From Escherichia coli (GTDB taxonomy: Bacteria > Pseudomonadota > Gammaproteobacteria > Enterobacterales > Enterobacteriaceae): a stretch of DNA of 64,000 nt. Where the stretch lies: NCBI RefSeq assembly GCF_003334315.1, contig NZ_QOWR01000008.1; one strand, given 5' to 3'. A model generated the notes under the pieces. That model was not told the DNA's origin. It made no database searches and saw only the letters and a list, made by a program, of their open reading frames with translations. Within the stretch, counting starts at the first letter, position 1. The number at the start of each line of letters is the position of its first letter. Shown here piece by piece: positions 1 to 5,792 of this stretch. A program made the translations under genes and the position numbers.

Positions 1-540
1 CTGGCAATGCTGTTTGGCGTCGGCTTTGGTTTACTGATTGAACGTGCGCAAATCTGCTTTACTTCGGCGTTCCGCGATATGTGGATCACCGGACGTACCC
101 ATATGGCGAAAGCAATCATTATCGGTATGGCGGTGAGTGCCATCGGGATCTTCAGTTACGTACAGTTAGGCGTTGAACCCAAAATCATGTGGGCGGGACC
201 AAACGCGGTAATTGGTGGTTTACTGTTTGGTTTTGGCATCGTGCTGGCAGGCGGCTGCGAAACCGGCTGGATGTACCGCGCGGTAGAAGGCCAGGTGCAC
301 TACTGGTGGGTCGGTCTGGGCAATGTGATCGGCTCGACGATTCTGGCGTATTACTGGGATGATTTCGCTCCGGCGCTGGCCACCGACTGGGACAAAATCA
401 ACCTGCTGAAAACCTTTGGCCCGATGGGTGGCCTGCTGGTGACATATTTGCTGTTGTTTACTGCGCTGATGTTGATTATCGGCTGGGAAAAACGCTTCTT
501 CCGCCGTGCGGCACCGCAGACTGCTAAGGAGATCGCATGA
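1..540 (+). CDS. yedE: YedE/YeeE-family inner membrane transporter, 3' portion (gene begins upstream of window)
   Basis: ORF 7..540 hydrophobic, GGCE motif; stop overlaps start of next gene; matches remembered K-12 gene order. Confidence 0.8.
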   Translation: MAMLFGVGFGLLIERAQICFTSAFRDMWITGRTHMAKAIIIGMAVSAIGIFSYVQLGVEPKIMWAGPNAVIGGLLFGFGIVLAGGCETGWMYRAVEGQVHYWWVGLGNVIGSTILAYYWDDFAPALATDWDKINLLKTFGPMGGLLVTYLLLFTALMLIIGWEKRFFRRAAPQTAKEIA

Positions 541-770
541 AAAATATCGTTCCTGATTACCGCCTTGATATGGTGGGTGAACCCTGCCCTTATCCGGCAG
601 TCGCAACTCTTGAGGCGATGCCGCAGTTAAAAAAAGGGGAAATCCTGGAAGTGGTGAGCGACTGTCCACAGTCGATCAATAATATCCCACTGGATGCGCG
701 TAATCACGGCTATACGGTGCTGGATATTCAGCAAGACGGGCCGACCATTCGTTATTTAATTCAGAAGTAA
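537..770 (+). CDS. yedF: TusA-like sulfurtransferase YedF
   Basis: 77 aa, CPxP motif (EPCPYP); ATGA overlap with yedE. Confidence 0.85.
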   Translation: MKNIVPDYRLDMVGEPCPYPAVATLEAMPQLKKGEILEVVSDCPQSINNIPLDARNHGYTVLDIQQDGPTIRYLIQK

Positions 771-876
771 TCCCTCATTCCCGCTGTGGCCCACTGCGGG
801 AACATCGTTGCCTCTGACACATAGATTTTACCCACCCCCTCTCCTATTCTTTTCAGTATGATCTCAGGAGGTTTCT

Positions 877-1545
877 ATGTGTGGACGCTTTGCCCAATCC
901 CAAACGCGTGAAGATTACCTTGCGCTTCTCGCGGAAGATATTGAACGCGATATTCCCTACGATCCCGAACCCATTGGCAGATACAACGTCGCGCCGGGAA
1001 CCAAAGTTCTTCTGCTCAGTGAACGTGATGAACACCTTCATCTGGATCCGGTTTTCTGGGGATATGCTCCCGGATGGTGGGATAAACCGCCGCTGATTAA
1101 CGCCCGCGTAGAAACTGCGGCCACCAGTCGTATGTTTAAACCGCTCTGGCAACATGGTCGGGCAATCTGTTTTGCCGATGGCTGGTTTGAGTGGAAAAAA
1201 GAAGGCGACAAAAAACAGCCTTATTTTATCTATCGCGCTGATGGACAACCTGTTTTTATGGCCGCGATAGGTAGCACACCGTTTGAGCGCGGTGACGAAG
1301 CCGAAGGATTTTTAATTGTCACTGCAGCAGCAGACCAGGGTCTGGTATATATTCATGACCGCCGCCCGCTGGTTCTGTCGCCAGAAGCTGCACAGGAATG
1401 GATGCGGCAAGAGATTGGCGGTAAAGAAGCATCAGAAATTGCTACCAACGGCTGTGTGCCAGCAAACCAGTTCACCTGGCACCCGGTATCGCGCGCGGTA
1501 GGTAATGTCAAAAACCAGGGCGCGGAGTTAATTCAACCTATCTGA
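877..1545 (+). CDS. yedK: SRAP-domain abasic-site processing protein YedK
   Basis: 222 aa, N-terminal MCGRF (catalytic Cys2). Confidence 0.9.
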   Translation: MCGRFAQSQTREDYLALLAEDIERDIPYDPEPIGRYNVAPGTKVLLLSERDEHLHLDPVFWGYAPGWWDKPPLINARVETAATSRMFKPLWQHGRAICFADGWFEWKKEGDKKQPYFIYRADGQPVFMAAIGSTPFERGDEAEGFLIVTAAADQGLVYIHDRRPLVLSPEAAQEWMRQEIGGKEASEIATNGCVPANQFTWHPVSRAVGNVKNQGAELIQPI

Positions 1546-1938
1546 TAAGCCTGGAGATTATTGATCAACAATACTGCGTCATAAGAAATCTCTATTAGAC
1601 AAAGTAGACGCTCCTTCCACATGCGCCACAAGAAACCTCTATTCCAGTGACACAATTACGCCTGATTATTTCCCTAGCCCGGAATATGAATAAAAACATC
1701 AACAAAGATTAAATTATTCAAACGTTACTGTTGCGTCTGCGGTCGTAGCAACATCCGACGTGGTGATGAGTGTTAAAAGAGACACTCTGATGTTCAGAGG
1801 GGTTATCGCGTTTACGGATCGTGGATGGCAGAAAACTTTCAGGATCAGGTATCCATTTTAAACCAGAAATAGGGTGAGTTTGCCCCATCCATGCCCCACG
1901 CGGGCAGATGGGATGTAATTACCAACAGGTTACAAAAC

Positions 1939-2253
1939 CTACACCTGCATGGACATCACTTCCTGATACGCCGCCACCAGCTTATTACGCACCTGAATCC
2001 CCATTTGCATAGAAACTGAGGCTTTTTGCATATCGGTCATCACATCGTTTAACGCCACGCCGGGTTCACCGAGGGTGAATTTTTCTGCCTGCGTGCGGGC
2101 GGCTGTTTGTGTATCGCTTATGCGATCGAGCGCGGCGTGCAGCTGCCCGGTAAAACTAATGGTCGGTTGTGGCAGTGATTCCTGTGCACGCGCACTCATC
2201 GCCGTAGCCTGTAACTGGCTGATAACCCCTTCAATCCCCTGTATCGCTGACAT
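1939..2253 (-). CDS. fliE: flagellar hook-basal body protein FliE
   Basis: 104 aa from internal ATG ([10 protein letters not shown]...); longer ORF 1939..2283 has 10 extra codons. Confidence 0.9.
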
Positions 2254-2467
2254 TTTCGTCTCCCGGATAATTTCTGGTAGCAAAGCCTACCAGTAAGTCA
2301 ATAAGACAAAGGCGCTAAATAGCAACAAAAAAACGGGTTTATTGGCGGATAGAAAAAAACGAAAGCACAAATAATGGGAGCGTCAATTTTTCGAGTTTGC
2401 TGACCCGGGAGTGAGTCTTGTTCCACTTTGCCAATAACGCCGTCCATAATCAGCCACGAGGTGCGCG
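2254..2467. promoter_or_regulatory. divergent fliE / fliF class 2 flagellar promoter region
   Basis: intergenic between divergently oriented fliE and fliF; established regulation, sites not mapped here. Confidence 0.5.

Positions 2468-5792
<3,325 letters not shown>

Follow-up and report, generated by a model that had tools for sequence, protein, structure and literature searches.

The short yedK–fliE spacer of an Escherichia coli strain as the probable remnant of a prophage integrated at the 3′ end of fliE

Introduction

The interval between yedK and fliE of Escherichia coli raises the question of whether a short form of it is an empty site or what is left of a longer one. [quoted passage not shown] In the strain analyzed here (NCBI RefSeq assembly GCF_003334315.1, contig NZ_QOWR01000008.1), 393 bp separate the yedK stop from the fliE stop (1546–1938). 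Positions refer to the whole stretch of 64,000 nucleotides that was analyzed, hereafter the window. The original prediction, made from the sequence alone, took this spacer for the empty state of the site and the K-12 genes for an insertion into it.

Results

Comparison of the spacer with K-12

The features of the locus are listed in Table 1. No ORF longer than 56 aa was found in the spacer, the scan of the spacer for sigma-70-like promoters gave 0 matches, and an Rfam scan of window positions 1–5000 at E ≤ 1 returned no match. The terminator scan found two terminator-like hairpins, a count not above chance. A hairpin followed by a T run lies on the minus strand at 1785–1799, about 140 nt 3′ of the fliE stop and within the integrase stump; it is terminator-like by sequence and was kept across the aligned alleles of the yedL/espR family but not in the emrE-type rows.

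Table 1. Features of the yedK–fliE locus in the window; L001 is the K-12 locus.
Feature	Position	Strand	Description
yedE (end)	7–540		Other gene of the window
yedF	537–770		Other gene of the window
yedK (SOS-response-associated peptidase)	877–1545	+	222-aa ORF; named yedK in matching genomes; left flank
TAAGCCTGGAGATTAT	1546–1561		16 nt past the yedK stop; common to all alleles
43-bp segment	1562–1604		As in the K-12-type allele, downstream of yedK (blastn); holds repeat copy 1
Junction 1	1604/1605		603 bp extra in K-12 (L001 4110–4712), with yedL
64-bp segment	1605–1668		K-12 yedL–yedN intergenic segment (blastn, 95.3%); holds repeat copy 2
Junction 2	1668/1669		1,215 bp extra in K-12 (L001 4777–5991), yedN/yedM
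106-bp segment	1669–1774		Common only to the yedL/espR (K-12/O157/UTAK) allele family (alignment)
Homologue of the K-12 intG pseudogene (b1936)	1741–2019	+	93.9% identity over 279 bp
Tyrosine integrase stump	1775–1922	+	Last ~46–49 codons; region aligning with the catalytic-Tyr box; internal TAG at 1870–1872
CAACAGGTTACAAAAC	1923–1938		Phage-derived arm, from integrase stop to core; identical in the IdasGreatGrand attP and an IMG/VR contig
20-nt attachment core CTACACCTGCATGGACATCA	1939–1958		fliE stop codon and last 17 coding nt
fliE	1939–2253	−	104-aa ORF from the MSAIQG start; right flank
fliF	2468–4126	+	Other gene of the window

When the window was compared with the K-12 locus by blastn, three collinear pieces were obtained: window 800–1604 corresponded to L001 3303–4109 at 95%, 1605–1668 to L001 4713–4776, and 1668–2300 to L001 5992–6622. 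The surplus of K-12, about 1.8 kb, is thus in two blocks, and the 64-bp stretch that sets them apart is still present in the window. The first block includes yedL (480 bp), and the second includes yedN (1,129 bp), which PGAP describes in K-12 as a frameshifted DUF5503 protein; this yedN/yedM block is an espR-type LRR effector pseudogene with 31–38% G+C. By blastn, the window had no counterpart of either block, neither of the yedL GNAT acetyltransferase gene nor of a DUF5503/LRR (espR-type) gene or pseudogene, and neither a target duplication nor a mobility gene was seen at the two junctions. In the yedL/espR alleles, the counterpart of window 1669–1774 lies upstream of the espR start (yedN in K-12). 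The two junctions could also be observed separately, as in the yedL-only strain EH10-18-47 the first was filled as in K-12 and the second was espR-less as in the window. A tblastn search of the short-spacer strains L002 and L003 detected neither YedL nor EspR, and L003 equals the window apart from an IS1. This strain, VTB97420v, carries the IS1A in its spacer (L003 2302–2999, at about window position 1700), with flanks 100% identical to the window.

These data bore out a good part of the original prediction. The spacer of about 390 bp without an obvious ORF was measured at 393 bp, and the acetyltransferase gene was indeed missing from the window by blastn and from L003 by tblastn. The extra genes and the integrase pseudogene stated for K-12 agreed with the annotation, blastn, and PMC5122947, and the alignment around fliE, with the longer spacer in K-12, did not overturn this gene order. 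The statement that no integrase remnant was present had to be abandoned, since K-12 intG maps to the spacer and to the adjoining end of fliE, and the stump matches a phage integrase.

The integrase stump

The match to K-12 intG (NC_000913.3 2012502–2012780, noted as "cryptic prophage PR-G" in the MG1655 RefSeq record) spans all 279 bp of the pseudogene. At the nucleotide level, window 1775–1958 showed 87% identity over 196 bp to Escherichia phage IdasGreatGrand (PP925829; E 2e-56), and the translation of 1783–1920 corresponded to residues 386–431 of the 435-aa integrase of this phage, with 80% identity (tblastn, E 4e-21). When the stump translation was taken as a K-12/O157-like composite, it resembled the C-terminus of lambdoid phage integrases, and its best match was the integrase of IdasGreatGrand (89.8% over 49 aa, E 7e-22); the PHROG integrase families matched the stump weakly (E 0.002–0.09). 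A partial integrase was annotated by PGAP in the equivalent short spacer of strain 2013C_3653, and likewise in the K-12-type, O157, and yedL-only alleles. The stump is devoid of integrase function: about 385 of the 435 residues are missing and an internal stop is present. Here as in K-12, the last ~48 integrase codons (intG) and the 16-nt phage arm were the only recognizable phage sequence: in the phage records searched, 1562–1774 had no match, and no phage carrying yedL or espR was found.

The attachment site at the end of fliE

The homology to IdasGreatGrand runs past the integrase stop, through the phage arm and the core, and only then do phage and chromosome diverge. An independent IMG/VR phage contig with an integrase 99.5% alike likewise continued into the same core and then into unrelated sequence. 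In the window, the core was detected once, and neither a second att core nor other flanking repeats were found. A full-length integrase abuts fliE in eight complete E. coli genomes, and strain UTAK-1 has a complete P22-like prophage of ~38.7 kb between fliE and the old stump. This stump is found at the far prophage end, beside a second core copy with three mismatches over 36 nt that is followed by the other arm of the phage. We recognized an attL by two marks: a core identical to the attP of extant phages in two records, and the occurrence of this core at either end of the prophage in UTAK-1.

Because of the UTAK-1-type prophages and the match to phage attP, the 3′ end of fliE is, as judged by sequence comparison, an active attachment site for lambdoid/P22-like phages, and intG would be the fossil of an earlier integration. 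Such phages carry a copy of the 20-nt fliE 3′ end just past the integrase gene, and recombination there would leave fliE intact and the integrase tail-to-tail with it. The literature searched contained no paper on fliE as an attachment site.

Reconstruction of the empty site

An emrE-type locus (L092) provided the opposite boundary. There, TAAGCCTGGAGATTAT comes after the yedK stop, next is CTACACCTGGATGGACATCA, a core copy with one mismatch, and then an arm whose ATGCCCC motifs resemble those of phage arms. This left junction is the other end of a fossil prophage, and the 16 nt past the yedK stop would represent the bacterial arm that the attachment site had before insertion. Since the L092 core is 16 nt past the yedK stop, the site before insertion would have consisted of the yedK stop, 16 nt, and the fliE stop, with GATAAGCCTGGAGATTAT joined to CTACACCTGCATGGACATCACTTCCT as the predicted empty junction. 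None of the 5,426 complete E. coli genomes matched a 44-nt query for this junction over its full length, and 43 of them had the bacterial arm and a perfect core followed by divergence; about 434 further genomes probably carry the one-mismatch form of the core, judging by the 90–95% identity band. In the allele family of K-12 and the window, no core copy was found at the left boundary. All the DNA at 1562–1938 would lie inside the old insertion, and for 1562–1774 this assignment is made by position and not by homology.

The spacer of the window is ~377 bp longer than the reconstructed empty site, and it is not empty because the integrase stump and the phage arm sit between yedK and the core; bacterial arms joined by a single core, with no phage sequence between them, were not what the window contained. 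The empty state proposed in the original prediction was therefore set aside, as the stump, the phage arm, and the 64-bp and 106-bp K-12 pieces are all kept. Of its companion claim, an insertion in K-12, the ~1.8 kb of extra DNA was borne out, but this DNA is not one islet.

Allele classes of the yedK–fliE interval

Junction-specific queries against the 5,426 complete E. coli genomes showed that at least four allele classes coexist at this locus. The commonest was the emrE type (emrE-ybcL-ybcM; 2,621 genomes), followed by alleles with an espR-bearing junction beside the stump (K-12, O157, UTAK, and O121 types; 1,528 genomes). The short allele, with both junctions, was found in 1,015 genomes, so it is common and not peculiar to this strain, and the yedL-only or IS-disrupted forms amounted to about 130 (1,146 minus 1,015). 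The integrase stump was present in every allele from about window position 1802 onward.

All four combinations of presence and absence of yedL and espR were found. Both genes are present in K-12, TUM1226, and M7424, and also in O157, where a tandem duplication of 1,946 bp has added a second espR together with the stump; yedL without espR occurs in EH10-18-47 and AST85, espR without yedL in UTAK-1 and O121, and neither in the window. The O157:H7 genes espR3 and espR4 stem from this duplication (L005 4355–6300 and 6313–8256, 95% identity between copies), whose unit begins within yedL, spans espR, and ends in the integrase stump. In AST85, PGAP annotated an 18-aa "cyclic lactone autoinducer peptide" just 3′ of yedL (L107 2447–2503); this stretch belongs to the K-12-specific block, is not in the window, and may be an over-annotation.

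In the emrE type, the order is yedK, ybcM, ybcL, emrE, stump, and fliE, and in some cases an IS200/IS605 element or an nmpC-like porin gene lies between yedK and ybcM; this cargo order is probably that of the DLP12 prophage of K-12. Among the emrE-type alleles (L087, L088, and L092 are examples), some have an IS200/IS605-TnpB element that clips the end of yedK. Among STEC serogroups, O111:H11 had the short allele, O121 the espR-only allele, and O111:NM the emrE type. In the O111:NM strain FWSEC0005 (L006 2390–5002), the emrE-type relic abuts IS1203, fliD is truncated beside this element, and the amyA–yedK segment is missing; a truncated fliD would fit the non-motile (NM) designation.

Over 13 alleles, divergence was unusually high for E. 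coli: yedK differed by up to 5.7%, the 270-bp relic by up to 11.5%, and fliE by up to 4.1%. Short alleles differed from each other by up to 5–6% in the relic. In these 13 alleles, the local haplotype distances did not nest the short alleles within the long ones, and the distance matrices of yedK, the 64-bp piece, the relic, and fliE conflicted with each other, i.e., they were mosaic. This result suggests that old alleles have been shuffled by recombination.

Occurrence outside E. coli

A YedK search of genome contigs gave no Escherichia species other than E. coli, save for a contaminated MAG contig, and YedK clusters at 90% identity held only E. coli/Shigella names. In other genera, most YedK homologues occupied unrelated loci away from yedF and fliE; in Citrobacter werkmanii (L009 7001–9483), for example, a homologue with 86% identity directly adjoins umuC-umuD. 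YedK sequences 70–96% identical to that of E. coli were also found in contigs filed as Lachnospiraceae (a MAG, L007), Chryseobacterium (L013), Streptococcus infantis (L059), and Streptomyces morookaense (L075), the first of which also has yedF and fliE; these four look like enterobacterial contamination of the assemblies. The YedL orthologues of E. fergusonii, Enterobacter, and Yokenella are at other loci, and EspR homologues were confined to E. coli/Shigella. In Salmonella, another gene, SL1896, lies between yedF and fliE (PMC5122947).

Discussion

With good confidence, we regard the spacer as the reduced remains of a temperate phage whose integration took place in the last 20 nt of fliE. The short allele would have come from a yedL+/espR+ relic by two further deletions, as usually happens to the cargo of a dead prophage.

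For the direction of change taken by itself, we consider deletion from a K-12-like ancestor probable, and more likely than insertion. One observation comes from an imperfect 21-bp direct repeat, GCGYCAYAAGAAAYCTCTATT, found at 1576–1596 and 1623–1643 (two matches observed, 0.01 expected), which brackets the yedL site of K-12. Alleles with espR and without yedL (UTAK-1 and O121) have a single hybrid copy of this repeat, and the window has both copies without yedL. Alleles lacking yedL therefore come with two kinds of junction, at least one of which arose by loss. Deletion is also favored by espR, whose G+C content is below the 50–55% of its flanks and which adjoins the integrase stump; by the decay under way in other strains, with espR a pseudogene in K-12 and yedL frameshifted in M7424; and by the lack of an insertion vehicle at either junction. 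Other data are neutral or point the other way: both absent blocks are near gene-sized, with intergenic pieces left behind, which also fits insertion of single-gene cassettes, the event count is three under either direction, and the mosaic local distances carry no information on polarity.

The alternative that survives best concerns the route of the allele into this strain. The short allele could have been imported by homologous recombination from another lineage, as it lies beside recombination-prone flagellar genes, and we hold this to be evenly balanced. The distances between alleles in yedK and in the relic, the mosaic distance matrices, and the different alleles across STEC serogroups are all in line with import. 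If it took place, the strain's own history would be uninformative on insertion versus deletion, but import is compatible with the fossil-prophage explanation, since it bears on how the allele arrived and not on what the sequence is.

A second alternative reverses the order of events: the 393-bp relic would be the older form, and yedL and then espR would have been inserted as single-gene cassettes or morons to give the K-12 and O157 forms. The gene-like size of both K-12-specific blocks, the repeat around the yedL site, the existence of all four combinations of the two genes, and the divergence among short alleles, by which this state should be old, are points in its favor. Nevertheless, no transposase, integrase, target duplication, or other sign of insertion was found at the junctions, the two repeat copies of the window are easier to understand as a loss of yedL when the alleles with espR only have one hybrid copy, and a carrier would be required to bring in espR once the prophage was already decayed. 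In addition, pseudogenes are as a general rule subject to a bias toward deletion. We thus find this order of events improbable, and insertion as the direction of change, considered in general, is doubtful.

More speculatively, the interval could be a long-lived, multi-allelic "prophage graveyard," where phages integrated time and again at the final 20 nt of fliE and then decayed, giving the deeply diverged classes, at least four, which recombination, or selection linked to the neighboring flagellar genes, would maintain in the species, with the stump retained as a fliE 3′ UTR/terminator or for the attachment site; we give this broader scenario little weight. The last alternative, a never-occupied site into which K-12 gained one islet (yedL, yedN, yedM, and intG), would account for the longer spacer of K-12, for the low-G+C, foreign character of espR, and for the different location of the E. 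fergusonii yedL orthologue, so that yedL once moved into the interval, but it is refuted by the intG sequence and phage arm in the window, by the 64 bp kept between the two K-12 blocks, and by the L092 core, which puts the true empty junction far closer to yedK, and it is most improbable.

A short spacer beside a known islet should not be taken as an ancestral empty site until integrase stumps and att cores have been checked. As a marker with several alleles, the yedK–fliE interval could be used in typing, and the presence of espR3/espR4-type effector genes depends on the allele of the strain. The current understanding of prophage decay is unchanged; the attachment site at the end of fliE and the coexistence of several alleles give useful context and do not amount to a discovery.

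Among known systems, the closest to the window is K-12 intG (PR-G), with the same locus, orientation, and sequence, also tail-to-tail with fliE; there, yedL and the yedN/yedM pseudogene, both absent here, come before the stump, and the window copy has an internal TAG of its own. In the lambdoid/P22-like attL, as in IdasGreatGrand and UTAK-1, the 3′ end of the integrase reads toward a core that duplicates the 3′ end of the host gene. The window has the same arrangement, with phage arm and core identical to attP, but it keeps only the last ~11% of the integrase and has no excisionase, prophage body, or second core. The emrE-ybcL-ybcM relic allele (DLP12-like, with or without the nmpC-like porin) occupies the same interval and shares the core and the stump from about window position 1802, although its cargo is different and a recognizable right-hand core is found beside yedK. 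The O157:H7 espR3/espR4 locus, encoding non-LEE T3SS LRR effectors, is of the same allele family as the window (yedK, yedL, espR, stump, and fliE), but its espR genes are intact and its duplication has given it a second stump, whereas the window has neither yedL nor espR. The spacer is a known and annotated kind of prophage scar, that of PR-G/intG, in a common reduced form.
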